From positions 67,288-131,287 of the forward strand of contig CAZZJC010000006.1 of assembly GCA_964654285.1 (NCBI GenBank): a DNA stretch of 64,000 bases, in the 5' to 3' direction. A program made the translations under genes and the position numbers. Below the pieces are notes generated by a model that was given only the letters and a program-made list of their open reading frames with translations, was not told the DNA's origin and searched no databases. Below, in pieces: positions 595-29,808 of the stretch. Within the stretch, counting starts at the first letter, position 1; each line of letters opens with the position of its first letter. The DNA comes from an uncultured Candidatus Kuenenia sp. (GTDB lineage: Bacteria > Planctomycetota > UBA11346).

Positions 595-716
595 TGGGCC
601 TCACTGGGCTTGGACTGCATGGGAAACTAGACATACAAGGCGTTTTTAGACAACGCTTTATAACGATTCCTTAAATACGGGAATTGTATTCCCTGTTTTT
701 CCGGTACGGTCATGTC

Positions 717-4700: not shown

Positions 4701-4796
4701 GAAGGTTGCACCCCTGATATTGAATTTGGTGGTAGAGCCGTGGCAGGATTCTTGGCAGAAATGACGATCGATCAACGTGCACGCGCATCCGTACGT

Positions 4797-7564: not shown

Positions 7565-7682
7565 TAGGGTTTGCAGGGAGTGAGTATAATGGCGCTTGCG
7601 ACAAACGGCAACCACCAAGGCAAACGTGGATGTTGGAATCACGTTCAGACTCGGATCAGTTCGATTCATTTTAATTACATGA

Positions 7683-7691
7683 CCCCCCCCC
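7683..7691. repeat. Homopolymeric C9 tract in the divergent promoter region
   Basis: cccccccccc run at 7683-7691 between the HAD-UbiA operon start (7564, minus) and the acyltransferase start (7869, plus). Confidence 0.9.
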
Positions 7692-7868
7692 TCGATTGTC
7701 AAGCATCCCAACCACGTTAGGTTCCTCAACCATGATCCGATCCATTAAAATCACCTGGTCTTGCCCCACCCACAGTTGCCCTGAATACGAACAACCATTT
7801 GGTCATAGCGTCACTTCTTTTAAAGTCGTAGCCCGAAATAATGGGTTCAGACTCGGAACGATTGTCAA

Positions 7869-9188: not shown

Positions 9189-10055
9189 TCAGATGAGCTG
9201 CTCAGGTGGATACGACCTGTAGAGCCATGACGGTTTGCGACCATCACAAGCATGGGTAGCCCTGGCGCGGCAAAATAGGTACTGGCCAAGGTCTTCTCCT
9301 CGATGCGCGACCAACGGAGCGATGGTTTTCAGGTCGTAGAATTCGCCGGCGTGATTGTCATGTACATCCGAAGAAATCAACAAATCAACCGTAAATCCGG
9401 CGTGAGTCAGCAATCGGTGGAGGTCGTGCTTGTTGTATTCACGGTTGTGCCGCCCATGCGGACCGTAATGCGAATAGGGATCGTATATATTCACGCCAGC
9501 AAGCATGCGGGCGACGTTCTCAAGTCGGCACACGTTGGGAGTGCTGAGGATAAGGGTACCCCCGGGCACCAGACTGCGGTGCAGACGAAGCAGGAACTGT
9601 AGTGGGTCGCGTATGAGATGCTCAATCACCTCGCAGCACAGGACGACCTCGAAGTTGGTTGCCCAGGGTGATTCAGCGACCTCCATGTCAAGGTTGGGAT
9701 ACGACATGTCGTAGCGTTCGCCCGTCATGGCATTAACCATCGTTTGCAAACCATTGGCAGGCAATCCCTCGAAATAATTAAGACATTGTACCTGCCAGGA
9801 TGTAAATCGTCGCAGGAGCAGGGTCGTAAAATATGGGTTTGAACCGACCTCAAGCAGACGGCCGCTGCCGGGCGGAACAAGTGACAATGTCAAGAGGAAT
9901 CGACGAAAATCCGTATCTAGGTACGAACGCAACGCTGATGGATCAGCATTGTCGAGCGAAAACCCGGCGAGCCAATCCCTGAGCGCTACTTCGTCCCATC
10001 CCGGTGGGCAGGTGAAGGGCAGCGGTGTAAGGAGCGGAAATAATTTGATCGTCAT
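9189..10055 (-). CDS. Class I SAM-dependent methyltransferase
   Basis: LLEVGSNPYFTTLLL...VVLCCEVIEHLIRDP...LVPGGTLILSTPN shows SAM-methyltransferase motifs I, II and III. The start overlaps the stop of the 1160-aa GT (ATGA). GC is lower here. Confidence 0.75.
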   Translation of the reverse strand: MTIKLFPLLTPLPFTCPPGWDEVALRDWLAGFSLDNADPSALRSYLDTDFRRFLLTLSLVPPGSGRLLEVGSNPYFTTLLLRRFTSWQVQCLNYFEGLPANGLQTMVNAMTGERYDMSYPNLDMEVAESPWATNFEVVLCCEVIEHLIRDPLQFLLRLHRSLVPGGTLILSTPNVCRLENVARMLAGVNIYDPYSHYGPHGRHNREYNKHDLHRLLTHAGFTVDLLISSDVHDNHAGEFYDLKTIAPLVAHRGEDLGQYLFCRARATHACDGRKPSWLYRSYPPEQLI

Positions 10056-13000
10056 GGGTGGTCCTGGGTTGCTTCATATAGCCCGCCTGAAACAAGCAAA
10101 GCCGTGATCTGTTCCGGCGCATGGCGCTGACGCACCCATGCGGCAGCTTGGCCCACCGTTCCCAGGTCAAGAGTGGCCCTGACGGCTGGGGCGAATTCGT
10201 GGGAATCTGCCCAGTCGCGTCCGCCACCGCTGCGTTGGGTGAGGTCGACAGTGACACCACAGCGACGGTTGACTAGAGTCGGGCGGCCAAGCGACCACGC
10301 CTCGAGGATGACCAGAGACAGGCTTTCATTGGGAGAAGGATTGATGAGCAGACCACAACCGGCTATGGCGTCCCACCGACTCGTCTCGTCTACGAAGCCC
10401 AATGCCTTCACGTCAGGATGATCGGGAACCTGCATCGCAGCCCTGCCGATCAAGACCAGGGGAGGAAGACCGGCACCGGCCGCCTGGGCAGCCAAGTAAT
10501 GGTCGAATAGAAGGTCGCACCCTTTGCCTGGGTCGATACGGCCCAGGTAGAGTATGTAACCGCGTTGCAGTCCATGACGGACCAAAAAGCGATCACTGTC
10601 CACGTTGGTAGGCGGTTGGATGGCAGCTGAGACCACAGGCCCATCCACGCTGAGGTCATGGAAACGCATCCGCACGTGCCTGCGTTCCCATTCACTGAGG
10701 TACCAGAACGCCTTGGGCAGGCGGAAAAGACGGTCCCAAAAGCCAAAACGCATGCACCATTCGTCATGAGCGCAGGGTGCCAGGATGGCACGATCAGCAA
10801 CGAGTGGCAGACCAAACCATGTGGTCGCATAGAGGTAGCCCACAAATATCACGGCATCGTATTGGTTTCCGTTGCGACGCAGGTGGTCGTTGAGGGAACT
10901 GCTCACCGGCCCTTGCAAACGCATCCATCGGTCGGCGTCGTCTGGTCCGGCATTCTCAAGTCCAGTTTGTACAAGTTCAGCACTGCACGCATCGAAGGCA
11001 GTGACGTTGCGGGGAATATCGACCTTGAAACGTCGCACCCGGACGCCCTCAACCTCGTCATCGCCAACTTGATAAAAATTCTCCCAGGTCATGTAATCAC
11101 GGGCGCAAGTTGTTAGTACCTCGACTTGGTTTCGTCCCAGACAACTACCCACCAGTCTGGCCCAAGCCAGGGCGAGGGCCTCGGCGCCGCCAGCAACCTC
11201 GCGCCCACAACGGGTGACCACCACAGCAACTTTAGGCGGAAAAGCCGCCTGCAGGGCCGACAACCAGATCGGACGAACAACAGCTGGAAGAAAGTCACGC
11301 AGTCGCTTTCGTTGGCCGATCAGGATCCGGCGGCGGTCTGCGGGTTCCATTGCGGCGGCGATGGCCGTCGCAATGGCGGTATCGTCTGCGTCTGGCGGCA
11401 AGCACACGCCAGCCCCACCCAAAGTCTCGCCCACTGCGGCATGGTTGAGGGCAACTACCGGCACTTCAAAGGCCATGGCTTCGACGAGCGGGACACCAAA
11501 GCCCTCGTGTTCTGACACTGATACGTAGACATCGGCGGCACGATACGCGGCAGCCAATTGAGCCTGGGTGGCCTTGGTAATTATGCGCACCTGTCCTGTC
11601 AGATCCTCGGCCGTGAGGTCGGCGAGAACAAAGCGAGACCAGTCATCACCAGCGTCAAAATGGCCAACTAAAATGAGACTGGCCGGTATTTTATTCGCGC
11701 GTAACCGGCGAAGGATGGCCAACAATCGATCCTGGCGTTTGTTGGGCGCTAAGCGCCCAACAAAAAGAAGGCGCGGCGACGGCAGTAAGAGCAATTCGGA
11801 TTCAAGAGCGTTCTCGGGCGGTTGACACCAGGTCTCGGGCTGAAAAGGGAGTGTCAGGATGTCACCGGCTGGCGGCAGATGGACGGCACGTGCAAACTCG
11901 TCCCGATTGAACACGGAATCGTGAAATCGTATCGGGAATGCCGCTGCCAATGCCGGCAAGGCTTCAATGCCGGCCTGCAGATTACTGGCTGTCTGAGGGT
12001 CATGCGCGAAGAACCGTGGCGGTGTGATATTGTGGTCAAGCAAAGCCTTGGGTCCGCGATATGAGACCGCCCAATCGGTCGCTGGCGAACCTATGCTGTG
12101 ATGGTAAATTATCGGTTCATCGGTAAGCGAAACCGACGGTAGCGGTAAAACTCGATCAGCTAGTGCAGGGTCGAGGTAGCGGGCGATCAGTTTGCTGTCC
12201 ATTCCCCAACTGCGAAACCAACTTTGTACTGCGATGGCCTCGGAACTAATGGCATCACCAGGGCGGCAGGCGGTCAGCACTTGGTGCAAGTGACGCCTGA
12301 TCAACGGGAATCCTGGCGGTCGGCTAAGGGAGTCGACCAGAGTAATAATGCGGTCAATGACCTTGTCCCAACTCGACAACTCGCGTCCAGTAGCTTGACC
12401 GACCTTGCCCCATGCCGCCAGTTTCTCTGCGTCTGCGTCGGCTAGTTCGCCAATGATTCGTTGCCAGTCATTATCCGAATTAGCCATGGGAGCGCCGGCT
12501 ATCGCCGCCGCCTCGGCGGTGGCGTTACACCGCGCATCGACTGCAACCGGCCGGCCTAGATGCCAGGCCTCCATGAGGACCCGTGAGTAGGCTTCGTGGC
12601 GGCTTGGAACTGCAAGGGCTAGGCAATTAGCCAGTAGCCAGTTGCGGGTGCCATTGTCGACTAAACCAAGATCATGGACGCAATTTGGCAGATCGGCATA
12701 GCTGCGCCCATCGCTACCCGGTCCAGCAAAGACAAGGTCGAGCCCGCAACCACCTGCCGCCCGCCAGCGGAGGAAGGCGTCAGTTAGAACATTGCAGCCC
12801 TTGGAGGGATCGCGACGTCCGAGACAAAGCAAAAATCGTCCAAGGCCAGAAGTCGCCGCAGGGGGCGAGGCTGGAATTGCCAACGTCTCGGGTTCGATAC
12901 CAGTGCCAACCATGTGCAGACGACCATGCAAACCGGCCCCGAGAAGCCGGATAGCCAGCGAGGCCTCGCCAGTGCTGATCGCGGCTATAGCAGGTACCGA

Positions 13001-13534
13001 CATCGCAAGACGCGAAACGGCGGCCATGCGCGCATAGCCTTCATCATGAAGGCAAGGCATCAGTATGCCACGCGATCCGGCTAGACGTACCGCATCGAGA
13101 ACTAAACCAAAACCATAGGGCAGACCTATAACTGCAGCGTAGTCTGTCACATGCCTGGCGATGCGCCGTAAAAGGCTTGGGCTATTGATCCCGTGTGCCA
13201 AGAAGGCGTCCTCGACCCCTGGAGGGATCGCTCCGACAGGTGCGTGATCCCACTCGCCGCGAATGAACCGGATGTTGGCATTATCAAAAGCCGTGCTGTC
13301 GCGCTGACTGACCAGAAAGCGGCGCACCAGCACCGGGCCATCCAGACTGAGACCGGGATGCAGGACGTTGTTCGACCAGGGATCTTGGAAACGTGGAACG
13401 CAGGTGGTCAGAATCTCCACCCGGCGTCCACGTTGACTCAAGCGATGGGCCAGGGCACGGGCCAGACTCTCGGCCCCTCCCTGGCAATTGGGGCCATACC
13501 ATGGCACGACGATAGCAATGGGTTGCCCGTTCAT
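10052..13534 (-). CDS. Three-module GT4 (GT-B) glycosyltransferase, 1160 aa, WbdA/WxcA-like polymerising mannosyl/rhamnosyltransferase
   Basis: Module 1 (aa 1-~400) IAIVVPWYGPNCQGGAESLARALAHRLSQRGRRVEILTTC; module 2 (~400-770) ...FVGRLAPNKRQDRLL...EHEGFGVPLVEAMAFEVPVVA; module 3 (~775-1160) KVAVVVTRCGREVAGGAEALALAWARLVG...VEVLTTC...LEAWSLGRPTLV. The modules are paralogous to the ORFs at 19293..21608 and 21605..22777. Confidence 0.85.
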   Translation of the reverse strand: MNGQPIAIVVPWYGPNCQGGAESLARALAHRLSQRGRRVEILTTCVPRFQDPWSNNVLHPGLSLDGPVLVRRFLVSQRDSTAFDNANIRFIRGEWDHAPVGAIPPGVEDAFLAHGINSPSLLRRIARHVTDYAAVIGLPYGFGLVLDAVRLAGSRGILMPCLHDEGYARMAAVSRLAMSVPAIAAISTGEASLAIRLLGAGLHGRLHMVGTGIEPETLAIPASPPAATSGLGRFLLCLGRRDPSKGCNVLTDAFLRWRAAGGCGLDLVFAGPGSDGRSYADLPNCVHDLGLVDNGTRNWLLANCLALAVPSRHEAYSRVLMEAWHLGRPVAVDARCNATAEAAAIAGAPMANSDNDWQRIIGELADADAEKLAAWGKVGQATGRELSSWDKVIDRIITLVDSLSRPPGFPLIRRHLHQVLTACRPGDAISSEAIAVQSWFRSWGMDSKLIARYLDPALADRVLPLPSVSLTDEPIIYHHSIGSPATDWAVSYRGPKALLDHNITPPRFFAHDPQTASNLQAGIEALPALAAAFPIRFHDSVFNRDEFARAVHLPPAGDILTLPFQPETWCQPPENALESELLLLPSPRLLFVGRLAPNKRQDRLLAILRRLRANKIPASLILVGHFDAGDDWSRFVLADLTAEDLTGQVRIITKATQAQLAAAYRAADVYVSVSEHEGFGVPLVEAMAFEVPVVALNHAAVGETLGGAGVCLPPDADDTAIATAIAAAMEPADRRRILIGQRKRLRDFLPAVVRPIWLSALQAAFPPKVAVVVTRCGREVAGGAEALALAWARLVGSCLGRNQVEVLTTCARDYMTWENFYQVGDDEVEGVRVRRFKVDIPRNVTAFDACSAELVQTGLENAGPDDADRWMRLQGPVSSSLNDHLRRNGNQYDAVIFVGYLYATTWFGLPLVADRAILAPCAHDEWCMRFGFWDRLFRLPKAFWYLSEWERRHVRMRFHDLSVDGPVVSAAIQPPTNVDSDRFLVRHGLQRGYILYLGRIDPGKGCDLLFDHYLAAQAAGAGLPPLVLIGRAAMQVPDHPDVKALGFVDETSRWDAIAGCGLLINPSPNESLSLVILEAWSLGRPTLVNRRCGVTVDLTQRSGGGRDWADSHEFAPAVRATLDLGTVGQAAAWVRQRHAPEQITALLVSGGLYEATQDHP

Positions 13535-15345
13535 GACCGTCCCCCCGGCTTGATGCTGATCAGGCCGAGATCCTGAGGACCATGGAGTGCGAGGTTAATC
13601 CTTGCCCGCGCATCCGTATCGCCGATGACAGTAGAGAGCGCCGCGCCGTCTGTATGTAAGTGCAATGGGCCGACCACCGTGAACCCGCCTTCGGCGACCA
13701 GTACTTCAAGAAGGGCGCGCGGCACCGGCCGCAAATGGGTTGGATCGAGCCAAAAAGTGTTGGCCCCCACCTGCAGGTTGGATGAATCTGGCGTCTCGAT
13801 CATCAACAGACCGCCCGGGGCCAGAGCGCGGTAGGAGGCCCGAATGAGACGCCAGATTCGATCAATCGGTAGATGCTCGACGACATGGAAGACAGAAACA
13901 ACGGCTAAGTTATCCTCAGGTTGAGACTCCAGCCAAGCGCAACCTTCATTAAGTTCAGCCCGCTGTCCCTTGATTCGGAGCGCTTCGACGAACTCTTTAT
14001 TAAGATCAATGCCGATAGGATCGCAATCTTCGGCAATCAACTCGAGCCATTCTCCACGACCACAACCGATATCAGCAACGGTGCGCAGTCCTGTGCGCGA
14101 CACAGCAGCCACAAGGTGCGGCCTATAGACTGCAACACGGTTGTGTATATCCACCATGGAACCGCGCAAACGCGCCTCGATTGCTGCGTAGACTCGGTCT
14201 AACTGCGCCTGCGTCGCATCAGAGGAGGAGAGGGGGGCCTGGGCGAGTGCGATCCGGTCGACCACAGAGGTCATTGCTGCAAGACGATGTTCGAGAGTCT
14301 GGCTTTGTAGGAGTAGGCCGGCTTCTGCCTCAACCTGATGCGCAACGCCCGCCTCCAAGTCGCCCAATTTTCCCACCTGGATTTGTAACGAGATTTCGAG
14401 AGCCTCCTGGCGTTCACCCATGGCCCGGATCTTGGCCTCGCATGGGGCGATGCGGTGTTGCGCGTCGACCACTTGCGCAAGCGCATGTGTCGTGCGCCGG
14501 GATTCCTGCTCTTGACGCTCGACGATGGTCTGAATATGCGCCTCAGTAGAACGAACGCGCTTGTCCGTGACGTCTGTCCGGGTCTCAACACCGGTCAACC
14601 TCGCGGATTGCGTGGCAAGGGATTGTTCACAGGCTTTCAGACGGGATCCAAGTTCCATTACCGATTCGGAGCCAACGTGGATGGCGTCCTCAATGGCCCC
14701 GATCTGATCGAGAATCGAGAGGATGGCCAAGTGGCGTTCGTGGTTGAGTTGGAGCACCAGATCGCGCAATGCCGTCGCTTTTGATTCCAGATTGGCGTCT
14801 ATTCGCTGAGTCTCGACAAACCGCTGATGGTTGAAATCAAGCATTTGCGCCGACAGCGCCGCGACCGATTGGTGGCGTTCGTGATTCAGAGTCAGCGCCA
14901 AGGAGCGCGTATGGGATAATTCGATCAACATATTGCGCATCTCGAGAACCTGACTCTCGATTCTTTCGCGGGCCTCAATCTCCATCCGTAATCGGCAACC
15001 GAGGGCATCACGATGGCGGTCCAGGAGTGAGAATGGAAGCAAGAGGCGTGCCAATCCAAGCAGTCGGCCGAGAATCGGGATGCGGGAAATGCGTTGACGC
15101 CAACGAAACCGGCTTAACCCCGGGAATGGTGCTGTAGCTGATCTGGACTTTCCTTCCATTGATTCAGCCAAGGCAAGGACAATTTCTAGCTTTGATAAAC
15201 GCCCGTCAGTCAAGGCGGACAGATGTAAGTTCATACCCGACGAATCGGGCCCTCTACCAAGAATCGAATGATATGCGGCAAGCAGGAACTCAGGTCCATC
15301 CAACGCCAGTAGAGCATCCATATCCACCGGATTCGGATAATTCAT
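13531..15345 (-). CDS. WbdD-like chain terminator/ruler candidate: N-terminal DUF4214, central coiled coil, C-terminal class I SAM methyltransferase
   Basis: N-terminal FLLAAYHSILGRGPDSSGMNLHLSALTDG...LALAES resembles DUF4214. About 250 aa follow with heptad-like repeats (LTLNHERHQSV..., LVLQLNHERHLAIL...). The C-terminus has VADIGCGRGEWLELI...VFHVVEHLP...LAPGGLLMIETPD, the methyltransferase motifs. The gene is ATGA-coupled to both neighbours. Confidence 0.7.
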   Translation of the reverse strand: MNYPNPVDMDALLALDGPEFLLAAYHSILGRGPDSSGMNLHLSALTDGRLSKLEIVLALAESMEGKSRSATAPFPGLSRFRWRQRISRIPILGRLLGLARLLLPFSLLDRHRDALGCRLRMEIEARERIESQVLEMRNMLIELSHTRSLALTLNHERHQSVAALSAQMLDFNHQRFVETQRIDANLESKATALRDLVLQLNHERHLAILSILDQIGAIEDAIHVGSESVMELGSRLKACEQSLATQSARLTGVETRTDVTDKRVRSTEAHIQTIVERQEQESRRTTHALAQVVDAQHRIAPCEAKIRAMGERQEALEISLQIQVGKLGDLEAGVAHQVEAEAGLLLQSQTLEHRLAAMTSVVDRIALAQAPLSSSDATQAQLDRVYAAIEARLRGSMVDIHNRVAVYRPHLVAAVSRTGLRTVADIGCGRGEWLELIAEDCDPIGIDLNKEFVEALRIKGQRAELNEGCAWLESQPEDNLAVVSVFHVVEHLPIDRIWRLIRASYRALAPGGLLMIETPDSSNLQVGANTFWLDPTHLRPVPRALLEVLVAEGGFTVVGPLHLHTDGAALSTVIGDTDARARINLALHGPQDLGLISIKPGGRS

Positions 15346-16583
15346 ACCGGCACCAGCGCCTTTTTATCCGTGGCTTCCGACAAGGTGGCTCGTAATCGGG
15401 TGTGACCTATAAACATTGGCCCAATGATGCCTTTCACTGTGAAGCTCGTAAGGTTGTCATGCCAATGGTAGCAGTCCTTAAGATGATGGTCCTGACTGTG
15501 GATGGCTACAGTGAGCGAATATTTTCCCGGGGCAATATCCATGTCCATGGTGAATCGGAAACAATAACGCTTACCGGGAACAACCTCGGGACGATGACCG
15601 AGATGCCAGGAATTGGTACCGAAGACATCCTGGCCGAAACGGTCGGTGATCTTGATCCCGATGGTCGCCTGGGGAATGGGGTGCTCGCAGTCGATCTCGA
15701 TCTCGATGGTGGTCGACTCTCCACTCTGGACCACATCGCCATGCGAGATCGAACCCAGGATGCGGGCGGCGACGATCCGGGCGGCATAGGTCCCGTAGGA
15801 TTGCTCGGCTTGCCTGGCTAAGGTGGAGATCTTCTGCGCCTGGATCCGATCCTCGCTATCTCCCATCTTGGCGAGAAGGAAATTGTAGGCGTTGGTCACC
15901 GGCTCAGGCAGTCCATCTTCGATCACCCGACCGCGATGGAGGAGGATCGCCCGATCGGTCAGGAGTTTGATCGAGTTCATGTCGTGGGAGACGAGGATCA
16001 GACTGCCGCCCTTGGCCTTGAAGGCGCGGATCCGTTCCAGGCATTTGGCGCCGAAGTGGGCGTCGCCCACCGACAGGGCCTCGTCGACGATGAAGCAGAC
16101 CGGTTCACTGTGGATGGCTATGGAGAATCCCAACCGCATCAACATGCCGCTGGAATAGGTCTTGACTGGTTCGTGGATGAAATCGCCGAGTTCGGTGAAG
16201 TCGATGATGGCCTGACGTTTGCTGGCGATTTCTGGTGGCGTCATGCCAAGAATGAGACCGCTGAGATGGATGTTTTCGATCCCGGAGAGTTGATTATTGA
16301 AACCGGCGCCGATCGCGAGCAGTCCGATCCGGCCGGCGCCATCGACGGAGATCCGGCCCTGGTCCGGGAGAAGCATGCCGGCCAGAATCCTGAGCAGGGT
16401 GCTCTTGCCGGCACCATTAGGGCCGATCACGCCGAGAGATTCACCCGGTTGCAAGGTGAAGGAGATGTCGTCCAGTGCCTGGAAATCCTTGTGATAGGGC
16501 CGCCGAAAGAGGATCTCCTTGAGCCGGTCCGCAGGATTGCGATACAGGCGAAACCGCTTGCTGATGTGGTCGACCGAAATCAT
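15342..16583 (-). CDS. wzt: O-antigen/teichoic-acid export ABC transporter ATP-binding protein (Wzt/TagH family) with a C-terminal glycan-binding domain
   Basis: [20 protein letters not shown] is the Walker A; [14 protein letters not shown] is the ABC signature; [11 protein letters not shown] is the Walker B. An extra C-terminal domain of about 160 aa is typical of Wzt. Confidence 0.9.
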
Positions 16584-17347
16584 AGGAAATCCCGGACATC
16601 ACGTTCAAGACGGCGGAAGAGCAGCACTGCCACCAGACTCAGGAGGCATCCGACGAGGAGCATCCCCATCAGGACATGCCAATCAGGGAATTGGTGCAGG
16701 ATGAAGATCCGGTGGTAGCAGTCGATGCCGATCGCGGTCGGGTTGGCCTCGACCACTGGTCGTACCGCCGCCGGCACGATGTCCTTGAGGTAGACGATCG
16801 GAGTGAGCCAGAACCAGAGCTGGAAGACGATGTTGGCAACTTCCTTGAGGTCGGGCAGGAAGACCGTGAAGGTGGCAAGGAGCAGGCCGATGCCGTAGGC
16901 GATGAGTTGCTGCGCGATGAACACCGGGATCAGGGCCACCAGCGGCCAACCAGGAAATTCCCCGTTGGCGAAAGTCAACACCAGGAGGATGCCGGTAGTC
17001 ACCAGGTAGGTGAAGGTCTCGGCCAGGATGATGTAAATTGGCAACAGAGGCAGACTGGTCTGCATCTGCTGGATCATCGGCTTTTTGTCGCTGAAGACGG
17101 TGGCGCATCGCAAGCACGTCATGCTGAAGGCGGTCCAGGGCAGCAGTCCGCTCATCAGGTAGATGCCATAACCCCAGGCGGAACCGTTGCCCGGCAGGCG
17201 GGCGGACATGATCTGGGAAAAGATCACCGTGAAGATGAAGACCATCACCAACGGCTGGATCAGGGCCCAGGTGCCGCCCAGGGCGGAGCCGCTGAACCGG
17301 TCGGTGAGGTCCCGTCGGGCGAGATGGAGGAGCAGGGCCGGCGACAT
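16580..17347 (-). CDS. wzm: ABC-2 type polysaccharide export permease (Wzm)
   Basis: MSPALLLHLARRDLTDRFSGSALGGTWALIQPL... has six TM helices in an ABC-2 permease architecture. Its stop overlaps the wzt start (ATGA). The listed 302-aa ORF has an N-terminal extension, so the start is placed at M48. Confidence 0.85.
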   Translation of the reverse strand: MSPALLLHLARRDLTDRFSGSALGGTWALIQPLVMVFIFTVIFSQIMSARLPGNGSAWGYGIYLMSGLLPWTAFSMTCLRCATVFSDKKPMIQQMQTSLPLLPIYIILAETFTYLVTTGILLVLTFANGEFPGWPLVALIPVFIAQQLIAYGIGLLLATFTVFLPDLKEVANIVFQLWFWLTPIVYLKDIVPAAVRPVVEANPTAIGIDCYHRIFILHQFPDWHVLMGMLLVGCLLSLVAVLLFRRLERDVRDFL

Positions 17348-17418
17348 GGAAGGCGCGGCACCATATAGGAGCCTTGCGCAGTATCCAGGGGGCTTGAGGT
17401 GGCGGCAACGATCCAAGG

Positions 17419-18531
17419 TCATCCCGCAGCACTGCGGGTCCGGGCGAGTTCGAGCATGGCCCACATGACCTGGGCAGAACAGTGCCAACCGCCCGGTTGA
17501 GCAGGCTGTGGTCGATGAATCCCGCCCTGTGCCAGCGCAGCCAAGGCATCAGCGAATCCCGACACCGTCAGGGACACCGGGCGCAGTGCGTCGCTGGCCG
17601 CCTCGCGCAATTCCGGCAAATCTCCCGCAATCACCGGGGTGCCGCAGCGGGCTGCTTCCAGGGCGGGCATGCCGAAACCCTCATACCGGGTAGGAAACAG
17701 CAGGGCTTCTGCCCCGGTCATCAACGCGGGGAGATCAGTCCGCGGAACATAGCCGAGATGGTGGATGGGTGCACCCGATACGCGGGCAGAGCGTGCCAAA
17801 GGATCCGCGCCCCAACCGCTACGCCCGGCGACCGCCAATTTGAGCCTGCCCAGGCGTCCAGCGGTGTGGACCTGTTCCGCAGCGGCAAGAAGCAGTCCAT
17901 AGTTTTTGCGGGGTTCCCTGGTACCGACTGCGAGGGCATAGGGTTTCTCCAAACCGTGCCGACGCAGGACCGCGCTCACCTCTGCCACCGGCCTGGGTGA
18001 GAAACCCGGGTCGGCATCCGGTCGGGCGATACCATCAACAGTATGACCATAGCGGTCCTGGATGCGCTTGGCTGTGCCCGCCGAGATGGCAACTGCGGCA
18101 TCTGCGCGCCGCAAATCACTGGCAAAGAACATCTTGGCGACGATCCGCCCGCCCAGGGTCATGGAATCAGGCGCTTCGAGGTGGACCACATCGTAGAGTG
18201 TGAGCAGTCCGGGGATCCCCTTGGGGCAACGCGGCATGGCCATGCTGCACCCCCAGAAGGCATCGATGCGGTCGCCGCGCAGCATGGCCCCGACTCGTTC
18301 GCGCATCCATACGGTCTGCGGCACGCCTCTGGGCCACCAGGGATCGGTACGCCAGAAGTGTTCGATCCCAGGCAGGTCGATATCCTGCCGACACGGCAGG
18401 TAGATGACCACTTCCAGGGGGCGGATCGCTGCCATCGCCCGCAGCAGGGCCGCGACATAGAGGCCAATTCCTGCGACGGGAGCGCGCACAGCACGGCCAT
18501 CGATGGCGAGGCGGAAGGGAGGGTCTGACAT
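17419..18531 (-). CDS. GT4 family glycosyltransferase (group 1)
   Basis: MSDPPFRLAIDGRAVRAPVAGIGLYV...VGTREPRKNYGLLL...RYEGFGMPALEAARCGTPVIAGD carries the GT4 EX7E region. The start is placed at M99 of the listed ORF because the N-terminal 98 aa look non-proteinaceous. Confidence 0.8.
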   Translation of the reverse strand: MSDPPFRLAIDGRAVRAPVAGIGLYVAALLRAMAAIRPLEVVIYLPCRQDIDLPGIEHFWRTDPWWPRGVPQTVWMRERVGAMLRGDRIDAFWGCSMAMPRCPKGIPGLLTLYDVVHLEAPDSMTLGGRIVAKMFFASDLRRADAAVAISAGTAKRIQDRYGHTVDGIARPDADPGFSPRPVAEVSAVLRRHGLEKPYALAVGTREPRKNYGLLLAAAEQVHTAGRLGRLKLAVAGRSGWGADPLARSARVSGAPIHHLGYVPRTDLPALMTGAEALLFPTRYEGFGMPALEAARCGTPVIAGDLPELREAASDALRPVSLTVSGFADALAALAQGGIHRPQPAQPGGWHCSAQVMWAMLELARTRSAAG

Positions 18532-18603
18532 CGTCGCGGGAACCCGGCTGAGGGCGAGGCCTGCATAGGCTGCTATCGGAGCGGGGCAAGATGTCCGTCG
18601 CCG

Positions 18604-19296
18604 GTGCGATCTCCGGCATGGACAGGCCCAAGCAGTCGGGATCATGGCCAACCCATGACAGGACCCAGCCCCGTCGATGAACTCATGCAGCGGGTCGCCG
18701 CCAGGGCCGCCTGGTACCGCCGGGCGGACGCCCGGGATGGTCTGGCCCTGCCGGAACCATTGCCGGCGCTGAGCCGGCCGGAAGCGCCGCGCGCGGTTCC
18801 GCAGCATCCCCGGGTCGGCCTGCATGAATTGCTCTCGCTACGAGGGGGTGATGTCGTTTCATCAGCCTATGAACGCCTGCTCTGGCGCTGCGCGAGTCCC
18901 GAGGAACTGGCCTTCCGGCTCGAACTGTTCCGCAGCGGCCGCCAAGATGTCTTCACCCTGATCCATGATCTTCGCCACAGTCCCGAGGGCATCCGTTGCG
19001 GGGTGCGGATCACCGGCAAAGGTTGGCGAAGGATCATCTTCGCCGTGCTCCGTCTTCCGATGGGCCGGCGCATGTGGCTTGGTTTGCGGGCCTTATTCGC
19101 CCTGCCCCGCTTGCGGGTCGACATCGGAGCCGAGTTGAGGCGTCAGGATCAACGTGTCGAGCGAATCGAGCACGCCCTGGGCGGCTTCGGACCGAAAGCT
19201 GCCCATGATCCGGAAACCGCTCAGGCTCTGCGGTGCCGGCTCGCGGCCCTTGAGCGTAGGGTCGCGGTCCTTGAACAGACGGTAGACCGTCCGTGA
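18604..19296 (+). CDS. DUF4214-like domain protein with a short C-terminal coiled coil (truncated WbdD-like paralog without a catalytic domain)
   Basis: VVSSAYERLLWRCASPEELAFRLELFRSGRQDVFTLIHDLRHSPEG has a DUF4214-like pattern. The C-terminus LRRQDQRVERIEHAL...LRCRLAALERRVAVLEQTV is a predicted coiled coil. An alternative start is at 18655. The stop overlaps the start of the following GT (ATGA). Confidence 0.5.
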   Translation: MRSPAWTGPSSRDHGQPMTGPSPVDELMQRVAARAAWYRRADARDGLALPEPLPALSRPEAPRAVPQHPRVGLHELLSLRGGDVVSSAYERLLWRCASPEELAFRLELFRSGRQDVFTLIHDLRHSPEGIRCGVRITGKGWRRIIFAVLRLPMGRRMWLGLRALFALPRLRVDIGAELRRQDQRVERIEHALGGFGPKAAHDPETAQALRCRLAALERRVAVLEQTVDRP

Positions 19297-21608
19297 TGAA
19301 TAAACGCATCGGCATCGTCGTCCCCTGGTATGGTGAAGCCCTGCGTGGCGGGGCAGAGACCGTGGCGCGGCAAGTGGCGCTCCGACTTGCCGCACGTGGT
19401 CATACGGTCGAAGTCCTCACCACGTGCTGCCGGTCCTTCCTGGACGACTGGGCGGTGAACCACCTGCCAGAGGGTTCGTCCGCCGATGGTCCGATACGGG
19501 TTAGCCGCTTCCCCGTCGATCCGCGCGATGCGCATGCTTTCAACTCGGCCAATGGATTTCTGCTTGGGCTGCCACCGCATCATTTCTCGCCTGGATTGGC
19601 CATTCCAGATCCGGGGTTCGTACCGCACAACCTCCACAGCGCCGCGCTCGTCCGCCATGTGGTTGACCATGCCGCAGAATACCACCGCGTTCTTTTTACG
19701 CCCTATCTGTACGGACCGATCCTGCGTGGTGCCCCGGCGGTCGCCGAACGGGCGGTTCTGCAACCCTGCCTGCATGACGAATCCTACGCCTACCTGGAAC
19801 CCATCCACGCCATGTTCCAGACAGTGCGTCGGTGCGCCTTCCTGTCCCATGGCGAGGCGGACCTTGCCGAGCGGATCTACGGTCCTGCGGTGATCGATGG
19901 TTCCATCGTGGTCGGATCGGGGATCGAAAGCGAAGAGTTAACCACGTCGGTCGCCGCCGGGGCTGATTCCCCGCTCATCCCCGAAGGGCCGTTCCTGCTC
20001 TACCTTGGTCGGCGCGATGCCACCAAGGGGGCCGACCTGCTGATCGACGGTTGGCGCCGCTACCAGGCTGCCCATCCAGGCAATCCGCTGGCATTGGTCC
20101 TGGCCGGACCAGGCCCGAAATCCTACACCGACCATGCGCTGCGGGTGACAGATCTCGGCCTGGTCAATGCCGCAACCAAGGCGGCTTTGCTGCGGGGTTG
20201 CCTTGCCCTGGTCCACCCCAGCCGCAATGAAAGCTACTCGCGCAGTCTGATGGAAGCCTGGCATTGCGGCCGCCCGGCGGTGGTTCATGCGCATTGCCCC
20301 GCCACCGCCGGGGCCATGGCGCGGGCGGGGGCAGGATGGCTTGCTAGTGAAGATCCGGATGCGTGGGCCCAGGCCATCGAGTGCGTCGCGGTATCGACGC
20401 AGGCCGAACGAGATGCGTTTGGTTCCCGTGGCGTCGCCTATGCGGCCGAGCACGCAGACTGGGAACGCTGTATCGACCGCTACGAGCAGCTCCTTGATCT
20501 TGCACCTACAACGGTGGCGACCATCCCGTTGCGAGCACGCCTGGGTCGGATCGATCAGGTCCTGACCGGATTCGACCTCGGAGATGCTATCTCGGAGGAG
20601 GCGCTCACGATCCAGCGTTGGTTGCGATCCCATGGGTGGCTCTCCGACATCGTTGCCCAGTATATCCAGGGACCGTTGCGCAGCGCCTGTGTGCCATGGC
20701 GAACTGGTCTGGTGAACCCTTCAGCCGGTATCATCTACCATCATTCGATCGGATCTGAGATCGCGACCGACGCAATTGCCCACCCCGGGCCCAAAGCCTT
20801 GATCTACCACAATATCACCCCGCCAAAATTTTTCACGGCGTATAAACCGGAACTCGCCAAGATGCTTCAGGATGGGCTCGACCATCTGCCCAGCGCTTGC
20901 GCCAGTTTCCCGCACCTCTGGGCGGATTCGGCCTTCAATGCCCGGGAATTGGCAGTTGCTGCGGGTCGACCCGTGGAGGTGCTGCCCCTGTCGGTGCCGC
21001 CCGCCAAATGGGCGGTGACGCCCGACCAGGGACTTCTCGCCGCCTTGCGCCGGGATCAGGTGCGCAACGTGCTGTTCGTCGGCCGGGTGGCGCCCAACAA
21101 GTGCCAGCATGATCTGGTGCGGATGTTCTGGCATCTGCTGCGGATGGGGGTCAATGCCAGACTCTGCCTGGTCGGACAGGTCTTCCCTGGGGATCCCTAT
21201 GTGGAGGAGGTCCAATCGCTCGCCGCCAATCTCGGCATCGCGAGCCGCGTCTGGATGCCCAACAAGATCACGGTGAGCGAATTGACCGCGGTCTGGAAGG
21301 TGGCGGATGTCTTCGTCAGCCTGAGTGAGCACGAAGGCTTCGGTGTGCCCCTGGTCGAAGCCATGCTGTTCGGCGTTCCCGTCGTCGCGTTTTCATGCAC
21401 CGCGATTGCCGAAACGCTGGGCGGTGTCGGTGTTCTGATGCCCGACAAGGGCGACCTGGTTGAAACTGCAGCAACCGTCGAGACCATCCTGGAAGATGCC
21501 AATCTGAGTGCGGAAATCGTCGCGCGCCAACGCGTGCGACGGATGGATTTCCTGCCTGCGGCAATAGAAAAAAGATATGAAACCTTGATTGGGGGGGCGT
21601 TTCATTGA
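19293..21608 (+). CDS. Two-module GT4 glycosyltransferase, 771 aa (paralog of modules 1 and 2 of the 1160-aa GT)
   Basis: IGIVVPWYGEALRGGAETVARQVALRLAARGHTVEVLTTC (module 1) and ...NVLFVGRVAPNKCQHDLV...EHEGFGVPLVEAMLFGVPVVAFS (module 2). The sequence is colinear with aa 1-~770 of ORF 10052..13534. Confidence 0.85.
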   Translation: MMNKRIGIVVPWYGEALRGGAETVARQVALRLAARGHTVEVLTTCCRSFLDDWAVNHLPEGSSADGPIRVSRFPVDPRDAHAFNSANGFLLGLPPHHFSPGLAIPDPGFVPHNLHSAALVRHVVDHAAEYHRVLFTPYLYGPILRGAPAVAERAVLQPCLHDESYAYLEPIHAMFQTVRRCAFLSHGEADLAERIYGPAVIDGSIVVGSGIESEELTTSVAAGADSPLIPEGPFLLYLGRRDATKGADLLIDGWRRYQAAHPGNPLALVLAGPGPKSYTDHALRVTDLGLVNAATKAALLRGCLALVHPSRNESYSRSLMEAWHCGRPAVVHAHCPATAGAMARAGAGWLASEDPDAWAQAIECVAVSTQAERDAFGSRGVAYAAEHADWERCIDRYEQLLDLAPTTVATIPLRARLGRIDQVLTGFDLGDAISEEALTIQRWLRSHGWLSDIVAQYIQGPLRSACVPWRTGLVNPSAGIIYHHSIGSEIATDAIAHPGPKALIYHNITPPKFFTAYKPELAKMLQDGLDHLPSACASFPHLWADSAFNARELAVAAGRPVEVLPLSVPPAKWAVTPDQGLLAALRRDQVRNVLFVGRVAPNKCQHDLVRMFWHLLRMGVNARLCLVGQVFPGDPYVEEVQSLAANLGIASRVWMPNKITVSELTAVWKVADVFVSLSEHEGFGVPLVEAMLFGVPVVAFSCTAIAETLGGVGVLMPDKGDLVETAATVETILEDANLSAEIVARQRVRRMDFLPAAIEKRYETLIGGAFH

Positions 21609-22777
21609 TTAAGCCGCGCATCGCGATGGTCGTCCAGCGGTATGGCCTCGAGGTCGCCGGCGGGGCCGAGTCTGTCGCGCGCGGGATCGCCCAGAAGATG
21701 GCTTCGGGTCCTTGGGAGGTTGAAGTCCTGACTACCTGCGCGATTCATTACGGCACCTGGAGGAACCATTATCCTTCAGGAAAGCTGCAAGACGGACCAG
21801 TCCTCGTGCGCCGTTTCCCGGTCGCAAGGGAGCGTCAAGAGTCTGCCTTCACCGCGTGGTGCAACCGGATCGGACACCAACCCGAACACGTCAGCCCTGC
21901 CGAAGCGGAAGCATGGATGCAGGCCCAGGGCCCTGATTGTCCGCAACTCACCGACTGGGTCGCCGAGAACGGCCATTGCTATGCTGGCGTGATGGCGTTC
22001 ACCTATCTCTATGCGACCACGGTGAACGCCTTGCGAGCCGCGCCAAAGGGAAGACGGATCCTGGTCCCCTTTGCCCACGATGAGTGGACTTTGCGTCTGC
22101 CGATCTGGCTTGAGTGGTTCGCGAACGTCGATCGCCTCGTGTACAGCACCGAAGAAGAGGAGAGCCTGCTGACATCCCGTTTTCCCGCATTGCGCGGGCG
22201 TGGGAGCGTGGTTGGTCAAGGTTTCACGCCACCGCCCCTTGGCAATGCCGACCGGTTCCGACAGACATTCGGTATCTACCGGGATTTCCTGCTCTACTGC
22301 GGCAGAATCGATCTGAACAAAGGGGTCGACATCCTGCTCGAACAACACGCGCGCTGGCGCAGGGTCGATGCAACCGCCCCCGATCTGGTGCTGATCGGCC
22401 AGGAAATGATCCAATTGCCCGCGCAACCAGGGGTGCATCGACTCGGGTTCGTCACCGACACCGTACGCGTTGATGCCCTGGCTGCGTGCCGGGCTTTGAT
22501 CAATCCCAGTGCCCTGGAGAGTTTAAGCCTCGTATTGCTCGAAGCCTGGTCCGCCGGTCGGCCGACGCTGTGCAATGCCGCCTGCGCGGTGATGGTCGGT
22601 CAGAGCCGGCGCAGTGGCGGGGGACTCTGGTATCGGGATGACGCCGAACTGCGCGCCGCGTGGGATATGATTAGGCATTCCCCACCGGATGCCGCCTCAG
22701 CCGGGCGTTGGGCCCGCGAGCGCTACGCGTGGCCGGCCATCATCGCCGGCTATGCGGCGTCTCTTCCCACGATGTGA
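21605..22777 (+). CDS. Single-module GT4 glycosyltransferase, 390 aa (paralog of module 3 of the 1160-aa GT)
   Basis: IAMVVQRYGLEVAGGAESVARGIAQKMASGPWEVEVLTTC...LLEAWSAGRPTLCNAACAVM. The start overlaps the stop of the upstream GT (ATGA). Confidence 0.85.
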   Translation: MIKPRIAMVVQRYGLEVAGGAESVARGIAQKMASGPWEVEVLTTCAIHYGTWRNHYPSGKLQDGPVLVRRFPVARERQESAFTAWCNRIGHQPEHVSPAEAEAWMQAQGPDCPQLTDWVAENGHCYAGVMAFTYLYATTVNALRAAPKGRRILVPFAHDEWTLRLPIWLEWFANVDRLVYSTEEEESLLTSRFPALRGRGSVVGQGFTPPPLGNADRFRQTFGIYRDFLLYCGRIDLNKGVDILLEQHARWRRVDATAPDLVLIGQEMIQLPAQPGVHRLGFVTDTVRVDALAACRALINPSALESLSLVLLEAWSAGRPTLCNAACAVMVGQSRRSGGGLWYRDDAELRAAWDMIRHSPPDAASAGRWARERYAWPAIIAGYAASLPTM

Positions 22778-23819
22778 TCACGGGGTCGCGGCCGCAGTAC
22801 CATCAGCCCAGACCCGCAGGCCCTGTCGAGCCAGATACAATGGGATGACCGTGAATCCGGCCTGGGTAAGGTCGCGCTGGAGGATCCGCTTGGCCTCGGA
22901 TCGATGCCTGCAGAGCAGGGTCACGGAACCGCCGTCACCACCAGCACCATTGACCTTGCATCCAAGCACGCCATGCGCCTGGGCGATGGTGATCACACGT
23001 TCGAAATCGGTGCCAACCAAGGCAGGATGCAAGGCGCGTTGGGCCTCGGTGTTCTCGTTCCACACTGTACCCAGGCCTGACCAATCTCCACGCATCAGTG
23101 CGTCTTTAGCCCGCAGGGCCAGACTGCGGAAACGTTCGAGGCGGACATCGGCATGAGCTTCAGGTCCGAGGTGCCGGATGACGTCCTGATGCACGGCAGA
23201 CGATTGGTGCGGTTTTCCTATGTAGACCAGCACCATGCGCCGTTCGAGTTCCCACCAGAGAGGGTTGGAAAGTTGGATCGGAGACACCGACGCATCGGGG
23301 AAACGGCTCATCTCGATCAGGTTGACTCCACCGTAGGCGGCACAGAGTTGATCCTGGATGCCGCTTTGAAGGGACAGGTCTTCCGTTTCGATGCGATGCG
23401 CCAACCGCGCGATCTCGTAGGGAGTGAGCGTTCCGGCAGAAAGCCGGTCGAGAGCGGCGATGATCGCCACCGAGACCGAGGCCGAGGTGCCGGTCGAGGC
23501 CCCTGGCGGGACCTCGCAAAAGATGCTGACATCGATGGAGGTGCGTTCCGGGATCTGCAGCCGGCGCAGGGCGCATTCCAGGAGCGGCAGCTTGTCGTAG
23601 GCCCGGTCGAGCTCTTCCATGGTGAAGTGCAGGCCGAAGTTCTCGGCATGGACGGCAACCCGGGGCTGGTCAGGACGTCGTTCCCGGGTGGTAATCTGCA
23701 CCTCGACGTAGGGATAGACCGCAATGTTGCACACCCGGCCGTGACCGGCGAACCAGGTATCGGTCCAGCCTCCTACATCGGCGACGCGGATCGGGGCGAC
23801 AGCGGTGATGGTGGTCATG
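22778..23819 (-). CDS. GHMP-family sugar kinase (HddA-like), copy 1
   Basis: MTTITAVAPIRVADVGGWTDTWF...CEVPPGASTGTSASVSVAIIAAL (GHMP motif II)...KVNGAGGDGGSVTLL (motif III). The second half of the gene has lower GC3. Confidence 0.8.
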
Positions 23820-23963
23820 CGGATCGGTTTCCTTGTTTGGGCGCGCAGCCTGCCGGCAATGGGCCGGTTCGTAAAGAGGCTGTCGGTCAAGGCGGAACTA
23901 CTAGGAAAGCGGCACCCAGGATGAGCCCCTGGCATCGATGTCTGCTGTGCGAAGATCACGGGC

Positions 23964-29614: not shown

Positions 29615-29808
29615 GGGCGGTTTTCCTGGGGAAGGATCGAGCCTGCCGCCCGGCGGCGGTGAGGGAAGATGGCGTGCCAGGTCGCAGGCGCCGGGTACGC
29701 GCGATGGCGGCGATGCCGGAAACGCATCCGCCCCGGCCGCAACCGCGCCGGATCGCCCACCCGCTGCGTCGGGCGGTTGAGTCCCCCGGCGGGGGGCGAC
29801 ACTCGCCG

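Follow-up and report, generated by a model that had tools for sequence, protein, structure and literature searches.

Why does one locus carry the same polymerase twice? In the 64 kb stretch of DNA analysed here (the window), a three-module GT4 polymerase is present as one fused protein on the minus strand and as two proteins on the plus strand. The kind of system is already known, and it is this double arrangement, fused and split, that is unusual. The original prediction was that it arose by a locus-internal duplication with gene fusion or fission.

Fused and split versions of the polymerase

The open reading frames have the predicted coordinates (Table 1). The fused protein, GT3 (A-B-A'), is colinear with GT2 (A-B) followed by GT1 (A'). 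Pairwise blastp alignments give 42% identity between residues 1-765 of GT3 and the 771-aa GT2 (778 columns, E=2e-155), and again 42% between residues 767-1145 and the 390-aa GT1 (385 columns, E=1e-70); the sets are homologous module for module. The A and A' modules are ∼33% identical to each other (E ∼1e-35).

Table 1. Features of the polysaccharide island in the window
Feature	Coordinates	Strand	Basis of assignment
Acyltransferase_3 membrane protein, probable O-acetyltransferase	7869..9059	+	Pfam PF01757, E=7e-19
MT2, 288-aa SAM methyltransferase, last gene of minus-strand operon	9189..10055	-	Pfam Methyltransf_23, E=1e-12
GT3, fused three-module GT4 polymerase, 1160 aa	10052..13534	-	three Glycos_transf_1 stretches
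GT3 module A'	10055..11239	-	module HMM match A'[767-1149]
GT3 module B	11240..12334	-	module HMM match B[413-755]
GT3 module A	12335..13534	-	module HMM match A[1-399]
Terminator / molecular-ruler candidate, 604 aa	13531..15345	-	Pfam DUF4214 and Methyltransf_23 (E=2e-16)
Wzt, ABC ATPase with C-terminal carbohydrate-binding domain	15342..16583	-	Pfam ABC_tran, Wzt_C (E=2e-31)
Wzm, ABC-2 permease	16580..17488	-	Pfam ABC2_membrane, E=4e-14
Single-module GT4, WbdB-like, adaptor-type candidate	17419..18825	-	Pfam Glycos_transf_1, E=2e-19
sDUF, short DUF4214-like helical protein without catalytic domain	18604..19296	+	homology to DUF4214 proteins
GT2, two-module GT4 (A-B), 770-771 aa	19293..21608	+	module HMMs A[2-401], B[414-766]
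GT1, single-module GT4 (A'), 390 aa	21605..22777	+	module HMM A'[3-388]
GHMP-family sugar kinase (HddA-like), island copy	22778..23965	-	Pfam GHMP_kinases_N
Single-module GT4, WbdB-like	23964..25361	+	Pfam Glycos_transf_1, E=4e-19
591-aa polytopic membrane protein, putative GT-C-type glycosyltransferase	25352..27127	-	NCBIfam LA_3751/LA_3752, E=5e-8, below cut-off

A six-frame scan of the whole 64 kb found the motif GGAE..E[IV]LTTC at the four predicted places and nowhere else. The VVPWYG that had been placed in front of it at each is, taken literally, restricted to the two A modules, the A' modules having VVTRCG and VVQRYG. The middle-module motifs FVGR[LV]APNK and EHEGFGVPLVEAM occur twice each, as anticipated. 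The plus-strand junctions are TGATG (or GTGA) and TTGA and not the ATGA overlaps originally read there. Stop and start codons overlap at the sDUF stop and GT2 start and again at the GT2 stop and GT1 start (TTG 21605), and by this layout the plus-strand ORFs are predicted to be translationally coupled. Orthologs of GT1, at 61-63% identity, align starting at its residue 3.

The export cassette, the DUF4214 partner proteins and their surroundings

As judged from gene content, wzm, wzt, terminator, GT3 and MT2 make up a complete transport-elongation-termination cassette. The Wzm/Wzt pair is, as claimed, the only one within the window. Wzm matches its E. coli O8 counterpart with a phmmer E=1e-47; homologs align from residue ∼48, and the probable start is near 17353. 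The methyltransferase expected downstream of GT3 is MT2, which overlaps it by 4 nt. In cyanobacterial loci an MT2 homolog sits between A-B and A', and the genes in that position in L006, L007, L020, L031, L035, L036 and others match MT2 with phmmer E-values of 1e-72 to 1e-82.

The terminator candidate begins with a DUF4214 domain (∼aa 9-67; 30.9 bits against a Pfam cut-off of 23.2), followed by a hydrophobic segment (aa 89-107, KD(19)=1.59) and ∼280 residues (aa 90-368) of long helices, modelled by AlphaFold (AF2) as 90-223 and 229-368 with pLDDT 65-80. Its C-terminal SAM methyltransferase (∼aa 385-560) is of the WbdD(O8) type, with 38% identity to E. coli O8 WbdD over 154 aa (E=1e-34), which bears out the predicted minus-strand order of WbdD-like protein, three-module GT and methyltransferase. 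It is the single methyltransferase-bearing terminator in the window.

Both polymerase sets were said to be preceded by a DUF4214/coiled-coil protein. Both upstream proteins are indeed DUF4214-type and helical, sharing the DUF4214 and following-segment module, but the shorter one, sDUF (probable start ATG 18655, giving 213 aa), has no direct Pfam match. A jackhmmer profile from the terminator N-terminus matches sDUF residues 70-170 (E=2e-27), and exhaustive HMMER searches gave 94 sDUF homologs, 82 with Pfam DUF4214 and 39 (41%) with a methyltransferase. The AF2 model of sDUF is all-helical, at low confidence.

Both single-module GT4s have WbdB-like sequences: the one at 17419..18825, whose true start is probably near 18531, has WbdB as its best E. 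coli O8 match (E=2e-24), and the one at 23964..25361 matches WbdB with E=7e-23. The island GHMP kinase (probable start near 23818) is 84% identical to a core copy at 28580.. and 75% identical to the kinase adjoining the sDUF ortholog in L088. A homolog of the putative GT-C protein adjoins the split polymerase pair in L002 (7654..; phmmer E=3e-46). Among 82 sequences scanned (81 related loci and the window), 33 have Gmd or Fcl-like genes no more than ∼10 kb away from the polymerase; the window instead has rmlC and rmlD, at its left edge.

The island is not uniform in composition. Core genes have a GC3 of 0.92, and GC3 is 0.54-0.60 (∼0.59) in the GT3 block versus 0.69-0.72 (∼0.71) in the plus-strand block. 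The low-GC block comprises the terminator, GT3, MT2 and the acyltransferase (GC3 0.54), which is divergent from the end of the minus-strand operon; GC3 steps sharply between wzt and the terminator.

Origin of the two sets

In a survey of 80 GTDB loci from many phyla, the same cassette recurs in 10 or more module arrangements, produced by splitting, fusion or reordering; a homolog of the terminating methyltransferase is present in 36 loci, Wzm/Wzt in 40 and MT2 in 12. Split and fused triads are both common across phyla, split being the more common format. The fused proteins do not group together: they form at least six clusters, and the closest neighbours of every cluster are split forms. On these groupings fusion is polyphyletic, having arisen at least six times. 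Two other metagenomes have the sDUF/A-B/A' arrangement as well, at 45-63% identity. In L088 and L089, sDUF orthologs (51% and 45% identity) lie directly upstream of A-B genes, with the overlapping stop and start codons kept. By these comparisons the plus-strand genes form a conserved operon of their own, and because the arrangement is kept at such identities elsewhere, the methyltransferase-less form would appear to be under selection.

Neighbour-joining (NJ) trees were built per module with 100 bootstraps, and for every module the in-window copies were sisters in none of the 100. GT2 was always sister to the A-B protein of L002 and never to GT3 (distance 0.46-0.59, versus 1.0 to GT3). The nearest relatives of GT1 are P0122-P0124 and L002, at 61-63% identity, compared with 42% to the A' module of GT3. 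The two in-window A' modules rank only 97/216 to each other and are separated in 92-100% of bootstraps. We therefore retain the term 'paralogous', which the module-for-module homology supports, but drop 'locus-internal duplication', because of the absence of sister bootstraps and the difference in GC3. The polyphyly of fusion across phyla and the closer relatives elsewhere (L002, P0122-P0124, L088 and L089) likewise speak against duplication. The two sets are probably old relatives joined by horizontal transfer or recombination.

Duplication in place would require that an ancestral A-B, A' and DUF4214-partner unit was doubled here and one copy then fused, that the methyltransferase was kept or gained by the fused copy's partner or lost by the other's, and that later divergence has brought the copies down to 42% identity. 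We regard this as unlikely, although the sets lie together within 13 kb around one exporter and have the N-terminal module of their upstream proteins in common. In the NJ trees, modules A and B of GT3 do belong to a small clade together with GT2/L002 and P0004 (68-95% bootstrap), and GT3 module A has an excess of rare residues in common with L002 (14) and GT2 (9, rank 3/166). Both observations point weakly to a distant common ancestor of the A-B parts, in which an old duplication is conceivable. The signal is uncertain because GT3 and P0004 both have long branches (1.0 substitutions per site or more to all else), and the clade may reflect long-branch attraction. Against duplication in place there are, besides the trees and the GC3 step, the occurrence in other organisms of the sDUF/A-B/A' unit unaccompanied by the fused set, and the fact that fused and split sets occur together in none of the 80 other loci.

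Proposed function and comparison with known systems

The region as a whole is reasonably well explained as a mosaic surface-polysaccharide island, following the ABC-transporter-dependent polymerase-terminator route and carrying two separately evolved A/B/A' polymerase versions. The fused polymerase would extend a lipid-linked chain, each module forming one type of linkage. By homology, the terminator would methylate the non-reducing end once the chain spans the coiled coil, and the cap would be recognised by the Wzt C-terminal domain for export through Wzm/Wzt. MT2 and the acyltransferase may decorate the glycan. The split polymerase comes with a scaffold protein in which the DUF4214/helical N-terminal module is retained and the methyltransferase is missing. 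This polymerase would probably make a further polymer, or else another block that differs in linkage or sugar, and this product might use the single Wzm/Wzt and conceivably the single capping enzyme. Two glycans or two chain-length modes served by one exporter, as originally suggested, are possible.

Alternatively, the two sets could cooperate, six GT4 modules and two single-module GT4s building one complex repeat or block co-polymer, with one polymerase extending or capping the other's chain, much as D-galactan II is added on D-galactan I in Klebsiella O1. The single Wzm/Wzt pair and single methyltransferase-bearing terminator fit this idea, as do the divergent operons, which are ∼120 bp apart and could be co-regulated. 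In addition, sDUF could join the terminator's coiled-coil assembly, because the two have the N-terminal module and helical tail in common. However, each set is found alone elsewhere as a self-sufficient cassette or operon, and the unlike composition of the blocks points to a recent juxtaposition; we give cooperation a slightly lower chance even than duplication in place. It is more doubtful still, indeed very improbable, that the plus-strand genes are a remnant of recombination, silent or in decay, with the minus-strand cassette alone in use. Such decay would be in keeping with the missing methyltransferase of sDUF, with the change of 12 of 79 family-invariant residues in GT1 (67 being retained), and with the dependence of GT1 on a TTG start, NCBI annotating 286 aa only; the lack of a promoter-like site in the divergent region between the operons is weak evidence. 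Yet the plus-strand ORFs are full length, without frameshifts or internal stops, their stop and start codons overlap, GT2 retains 112 of 118 invariant residues, and the short-DUF4214/A-B/A' order is conserved elsewhere. The catalytic EX7E motif is intact in all six modules (residues 314, 677 and 1070 of GT3; 313 and 681 of GT2; 305 of GT1), three of three being kept on the plus strand. By sequence, both polymerase sets look functional.

In such systems there is one GT module per linkage, terminators are coiled-coil proteins, and modules are variably split between proteins (PMC11231755, PMC7685785). The E. coli O8 / Klebsiella pneumoniae O5 system consists of Wzm, Wzt, WbdD, a three-module WbdA, WbdB and WbdC. 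The wzm-wzt-wbdD-wbdA order of E. coli IAI1 matches wzm-wzt-terminator-polymerase in the window, and the polymerase is likewise one protein of three GT modules (PMC7685785, PMC11231755). Wzt is homologous to that of O8 over its whole length (36% identity, 403 aa), C-terminal binding domain included, and the terminator methyltransferase and nearby WbdB-like GT4s also have O8 counterparts. We rejected GT3 as an ortholog of WbdA(O8), the match being to the GT4 motif only (28% over 98 aa, E=4e-8). In contrast to O8, the domain order of the terminator is reversed (DUF4214, helices, C-terminal methyltransferase), WbdD having no DUF4214; the window adds MT2, the acyltransferase and a split polymerase set with a methyltransferase-less partner, and has neither manB nor manC.

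In Klebsiella O4, O7 and O12, as predicted here, a coiled-coil ruler carries the terminator at its distal end, and some Klebsiella terminator orthologs stop after the coiled coil while others have further modules (PMC11231755). Their GTs are GT2, GT137 and others instead of GT4, the terminator chemistries differ, and no O4, O7 or O12 assembly is described with two formats of one polymerase per locus (PMC11231755). The common polysaccharide antigen locus of Pseudomonas aeruginosa, with pa5455-pa5459, makes an ABC-transporter-dependent, GT4-built polymer; it also encodes an acyltransferase, two methyltransferases resembling WbdD(O8), and additional GT4s with an influence on chain length (PMC3560663). 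The window similarly has the terminator methyltransferase, MT2, an acyltransferase and extra GT4s. However, the P. aeruginosa GTs are single-module proteins, and its methyltransferases are without the coiled-coil and membrane-interaction regions, both of which the window terminator has (PMC3560663).

The CPA 'TET' operon of Pseudomonas syringae, wzm-wzt-wbdD-wbdA (Jayaraman et al. 2020, PMC7820976), has by its published description the same gene order, a multi-GT4-module polymerase and an O-methyltransferase, although its polymerase is made up of two GT4 modules and each locus has a single set. The TET operon is highly variable and horizontally exchanged, with fused and unfused gene versions among strains, and its breakpoint around wzm/wzt resembles the GC3 step in the window (PMC7820976).

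The two polymerase sets and their relationship

The fused glycosyltransferase GT3 and the split pair GT2 and GT1 lie exactly where the original prediction had placed them, and pairwise alignment of the three proteins, a check which it proposed, matched them module for module. By blastp, GT2 is colinear with GT3 (42% identity over 778 columns, E = 2e-155) and GT1 aligns to the last 395 residues of GT3, again at 42% identity (E = 1e-70); the mutual identity of modules 1 and 3 of GT3 is ∼33%. Scanned in all six frames, the 64-kb window contains the motif GGAE..E[IV]LTTC four times, and both B-module motifs twice each with no further sites. The N-terminal motif had been described as four-fold in a longer form; the GGAE..LTTC part is indeed present four times, but the literal VVPWYG is restricted to two A modules.

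Features of the surface-polysaccharide island (GC3 is the range for the group to which the gene belongs)
Feature	Position	Strand	Product	GC3
rmlD	..594	-	sugar-donor gene	
ATPase	684..1892	+	AAA_14/DUF4143	
rmlC	1905..2297	-	sugar-donor gene	
Three-gene group	3933..7729	-	SDR (DprE2-like), FAD oxidase (DprE1-like), HAD+UbiA phosphoribosyltransferase-like	
MT2	9189..10055	-	288 aa, SAM methyltransferase	0.54-0.60
GT3	10052..13534	-	1160 aa, fused A-B-A'	0.54-0.60
Terminator	13531..15345	-	604 aa, N to C: DUF4214, hydrophobic segment, long helix of ∼280 residues (predicted), SAM methyltransferase	0.54-0.60
Wzt	15342..16583	-	ATPase	0.73-0.84
Wzm	16580..17488	-	permease	0.73-0.84
Short protein	18604 or 18655..19296	+	related to DUF4214 proteins	0.69-0.72
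GT2	19293..21608	+	A-B	0.69-0.72
GT1	21605..22777	+	A'	0.69-0.72
GHMP kinase	22778..23965	-	HddA-like	
GT-C-like protein	25352..27127	-	591 aa, membrane protein	
APS kinase	27124..27843			
GHMP kinase	28580..30043	-	HddA-like	

Every module is of GT4 type by Pfam, with matches to Glycos_transf_1 (PF00534) and PF13692. Each thus has the Glycos_transf_1 C-terminal domain together with the EX7E motif (residues 314, 677 and 1070 of GT3, 313 and 681 of GT2, and 305 of GT1) expected of CAZy GT4 retaining GT-B enzymes. A PDB sequence search matched generic GT4 enzymes only, and neither the glycosyltransferases, the methyltransferases nor the short protein matched an NCBIfam family above cut-off. Of the family-invariant residues, GT2 retains 112 of 118 and GT1 67 of 79, which makes decay of the plus-strand polymerase unlikely. 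Orthologs of GT1 with 61–63% identity align from residue 3, which places the real start at TTG 21605, in overlap with the stop codon of GT2. The public annotation of GT1 (P0121) gives only a 286-aa product starting at Met105, a call which would drop the N-terminal GGAE..LTTC motif.

The two sets had been attributed to a duplication within the locus. This is not supported: GT2 and GT1 are closer to foreign proteins than to GT3, are never sister to it, and belong to a different GC3 block. In searches with GT2, foreign A-B proteins score 659 bits, as against 474 bits for GT3, and GT1 is 61–63% identical to its database homologs P0122–P0124 compared with 42% to the A' module of GT3. Phylogenies of the modules, also among the proposed checks, were built by neighbour joining with bootstraps and Dayhoff-6 recoding, and complemented by a count of rare shared residues. 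The in-window copies are not sisters for A, B or A' (0 of 100 bootstraps for each module), since the partner of GT2 is L002, a related locus from another metagenome. The in-window A' modules have a mutual rank of 97 out of 216 and are split apart in 92–100% of bootstraps. The GT3 A and B modules fall into a small clade with GT2/L002 and the homologous protein P0004 (68–95%, also after Dayhoff-6 recoding), and module A of GT3 has an excess of rare residues in common with L002 and GT2; the branches of GT3 and P0004 are long, each being separated from all other sequences by at least 1.0 substitutions per site. Taken together, this hints at most weakly at a distant shared ancestor of the A-B parts of GT3 and GT2. 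A recent tandem or inverted duplication of the sets was rejected at the DNA level, where the sole repeat between them is 52 nt long with a 77% match.

The minus-strand operon and E. coli O8

The minus-strand operon runs from a WbdB-like GT4 through Wzm, Wzt, the terminator and GT3 to MT2, with a 4-nt gene overlap at each junction from wzm through MT2. The permease and ATPase of an O8/O9a-type polymerase-terminator assembly are both present: Wzm matches PF01061 (E = 4e-14) and, by phmmer, O8 Wzm (1e-47), and Wzt matches PF00005 (E = 7e-20) and O8 Wzt (4e-79). Wzt also has, by sequence, the C-terminal carbohydrate-binding domain of this type, scoring 109 bits for Wzt_C against a Pfam cut-off of 30.4, with residues 260–397 covered in the alignment to O8 Wzt. 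The terminator has a DUF4214 domain (PF13946) with a Pfam score of 30.9 bits, the cut-off being 23.2. Two helices, 90–223 and 229–368, are predicted by AF2, in a model which left the methyltransferase domain unmodelled, and hydrophobic enrichment at heptad positions a and d is 0.5–0.88 against a background of 0.42. The protein is thus a candidate terminating enzyme on an extended coiled coil, as in the O8/O9a type, with the domain order reversed relative to WbdD. Terminators of the same family, here and in four related loci (L003, L004, L042 and L050), begin with one to three copies of DUF4214 and a hydrophobic segment; the coiled coil comes next, and the methyltransferase is C-terminal. No description of this reversed-WbdD architecture was found in the literature searched.

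We compared the operon directly with the O8 rfb cluster of E. coli IAI1, in which the order is wzm-wzt-wbdD-wbdA (1213 aa)-wbdB-wbdC. Along its entire length, Wzt shows 36% identity to O8 Wzt, and the methyltransferase domain of the terminator matches WbdD(O8) at 38% identity (E = 1e-34). The terminator is the mirror image of WbdD in domain order, and GT3 and WbdA(O8) have just the generic GT4 motif in common. GT3 was accordingly rejected as a WbdA(O8) ortholog; the best local match is 28% over 98 aa (E = 4e-8), which falls short of three-module orthology. The O8-like gene order and the homology of Wzt and WbdD point to an O8-/TET-like operon, one which would work like the O8 polymerase-terminator system and the TET operon of P. 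syringae (PMC11231755, PMC7685785, PMC7820976). By analogy with the E. coli and Klebsiella models, each GT module would form one linkage, a methyl cap would be added at the end of the coiled-coil ruler, and Wzt would recognise the cap. In an assembly of the O8/O9a type, the polymerase with its three GT4 modules would act on a lipid-linked acceptor and the product would have a methylated non-reducing terminus. The functional outline originally put forward, of a WbdD-like terminator, a multi-module polymerase and one exporter, was largely right, by homology to O8 Wzm, Wzt and WbdD.

A widespread cassette family and the short DUF4214 protein

GT3 has hundreds of homologs, mostly A-B proteins of ∼775 aa, with a minority of A-B-A' fusions (∼1160–1200 aa) and a few A-B-GT9-A' proteins of 1566 aa; stand-alone A' homologs of GT1 number ∼3000. 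We annotated the modules by HMMs in 80 loci of GTDB species representatives. The main arrangements were A' B B A' (Acidobacteriota type, 18 loci), A-B with an adjacent A' (15), A-B and A' with intervening gene(s) (15), separate A, B and A' genes (9), B + A' (7), A + A' (5), fused A-B-A' (3) and fused B-A' (3). A cassette consisting of Wzm, Wzt, a methyltransferase-bearing helical protein, A-B, in some cases MT2, and A' recurs in cyanobacteria, Verrucomicrobiota, Desulfobacterota, Rokubacteria, Eremiobacterota and Methanomicrobiales, and the A/B/A' triad with its DUF4214/coiled-coil/methyltransferase partner also occurs in Acidobacteriota; in cyanobacterial loci the MT2 homolog is often the gene separating A-B from A'. 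If the cassette is defined by adjacent A, B and A' modules close to wzm and wzt, with a helical-protein gene 5' of them whose product has a WbdD(O8)-like methyltransferase, DUF4214 or both, the two in-window sets belong to it. The plus-strand set is a methyltransferase-less variant, also seen in L041, L088 and L089. Fused proteins form at least six groups, each closest to split forms, which indicates that module fusion is recurrent and derived. A fused and a split set together within 10 kb of the polymerase were found in none of the other surveyed loci (n = 80).

Neither the literature searched nor NCBIfam or the PDB yielded a characterised member of the A/B/A' family; this GT4 cassette family is very widespread but uncharacterised. 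Gmd/Fcl-like genes lie nearby in 33 of 82 sequences (81 related loci and the window), a hint that many members use a GDP-6-deoxyhexose donor; the sugar-donor genes at the left edge of the window are rmlC and rmlD. Two variants were also noted. Archaeal MAGs (Methanomicrobiales, L066 and L072) contain a complete cassette of Wzm, Wzt, methyltransferase, A, B and A', and in Opitutia-type genomes (L011; P0011–P0013) a GT9 heptosyltransferase-like domain lies between B and A' in proteins of ∼1570 aa.

The short protein, read from 18655 to 19296, gave no Pfam DUF4214 match even at E ≤ 10 and no homologs in a word-indexed protein search. It would be wrong to regard it as an orphan, since an exhaustive HMMER search returned 94 homologs. 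Its link to DUF4214 is indirect. Pfam DUF4214 is present in 82 of these homologs and a methyltransferase in 39 (41%), and about a third are themselves short (140–300 aa). A profile seeded by the N-terminus of the long terminator protein matches residues 70–170 (E = 2e-27), extending into the segment past DUF4214; the single-sequence AlphaFold model has a pLDDT of 41. The top two homologs, at 51% and 45% identity, come from other metagenomes (L088 and L089), and in both loci the homolog lies directly 5' of a gene that opens with the A-module motif and whose start codon overlaps the stop codon of the homolog. L088 also encodes a GHMP kinase 75% identical to that of the window, and L002, from the same metagenome, has A-B and A' together with a homolog of the GT-C-like protein. 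This arrangement indicates that the short DUF4214/A-B/A' unit is conserved on its own account, rather than being a by-product of events at this locus.

Island composition and the second set

The acyltransferase gene shares the GC3 range of MT2, GT3 and the terminator, the GT4 gene and the island GHMP kinase share that of the plus-strand set, and core genes are at 0.92. At the end of wzt (∼15345), GC3 steps from 0.73–0.92 in wzm/wzt to 0.43–0.70 in terminator/GT3/MT2. Composition therefore agrees with a mosaic origin and suggests, by analogy with the polymerase-terminator swaps beside the transporter described for P. syringae TET alleles (PMC7820976), that a polymerase-terminator block was swapped in 3' of a resident transporter. 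The case also shows that what reads in the bare sequence as a ‘duplication’ within one locus can be a mosaic produced by recombination. The HddA-like GHMP kinase occurs twice (84% protein and ∼76% DNA identity), one copy being island-like in GC3 (0.72) and the other core-like (0.92), and the copies flank a GT4, the GT-C-like protein and the APS kinase. The layout resembles a scar of recombination, here at the right-hand boundary of the island. At the left edge, rmlD and rmlC are split by the ATPase gene, and the dTDP-rhamnose operon there seems to have been interrupted. No tRNA or Rfam family was matched anywhere in the window.

What is new about the locus is its arrangement; the system itself is of a known kind and involves no new type of machinery. 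Beyond the homology, architecture, catalytic-motif conservation, conserved gene order and translational coupling established here, it is a matter of speculation that the methyltransferase-less DUF4214 protein might be a membrane or docking scaffold for the second polymerase. The predicted helical length of the scaffold is ∼60 residues in the short protein versus ∼280 in the long one, and DUF4214 of a secreted Pseudomonas protein was recently reported to bind O-antigen (bioRxiv 10.64898/2026.09.02.748959). We consider rather improbable a fuller proposal in which the short protein would be a terminator-less paralog of the ruler, docking the split polymerase at the membrane either by itself or in a hetero-oligomer with the long ruler, so that one exporter would serve two polymers or chain-length classes set by two scaffolds, with DUF4214 as the glycan- or polymerase-docking element of the mirror-image WbdD architecture. 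Fused and split polymerases, and rulers with and without the capping enzyme, occur next to each other in this locus and form a natural comparison. The locus could therefore be used to test the effect of module fusion and scaffold length on polymer structure and chain length in ABC-transporter-dependent glycans.

Other genes of the island may modify the glycan. The SDR, FAD oxidase and HAD+UbiA genes look like a pathway to a polyprenyl-phospho-D-arabinofuranose donor and, with the GT-C-like protein, suggest periplasmic arabinofuranosylation, while the APS kinase hints at sulfation.
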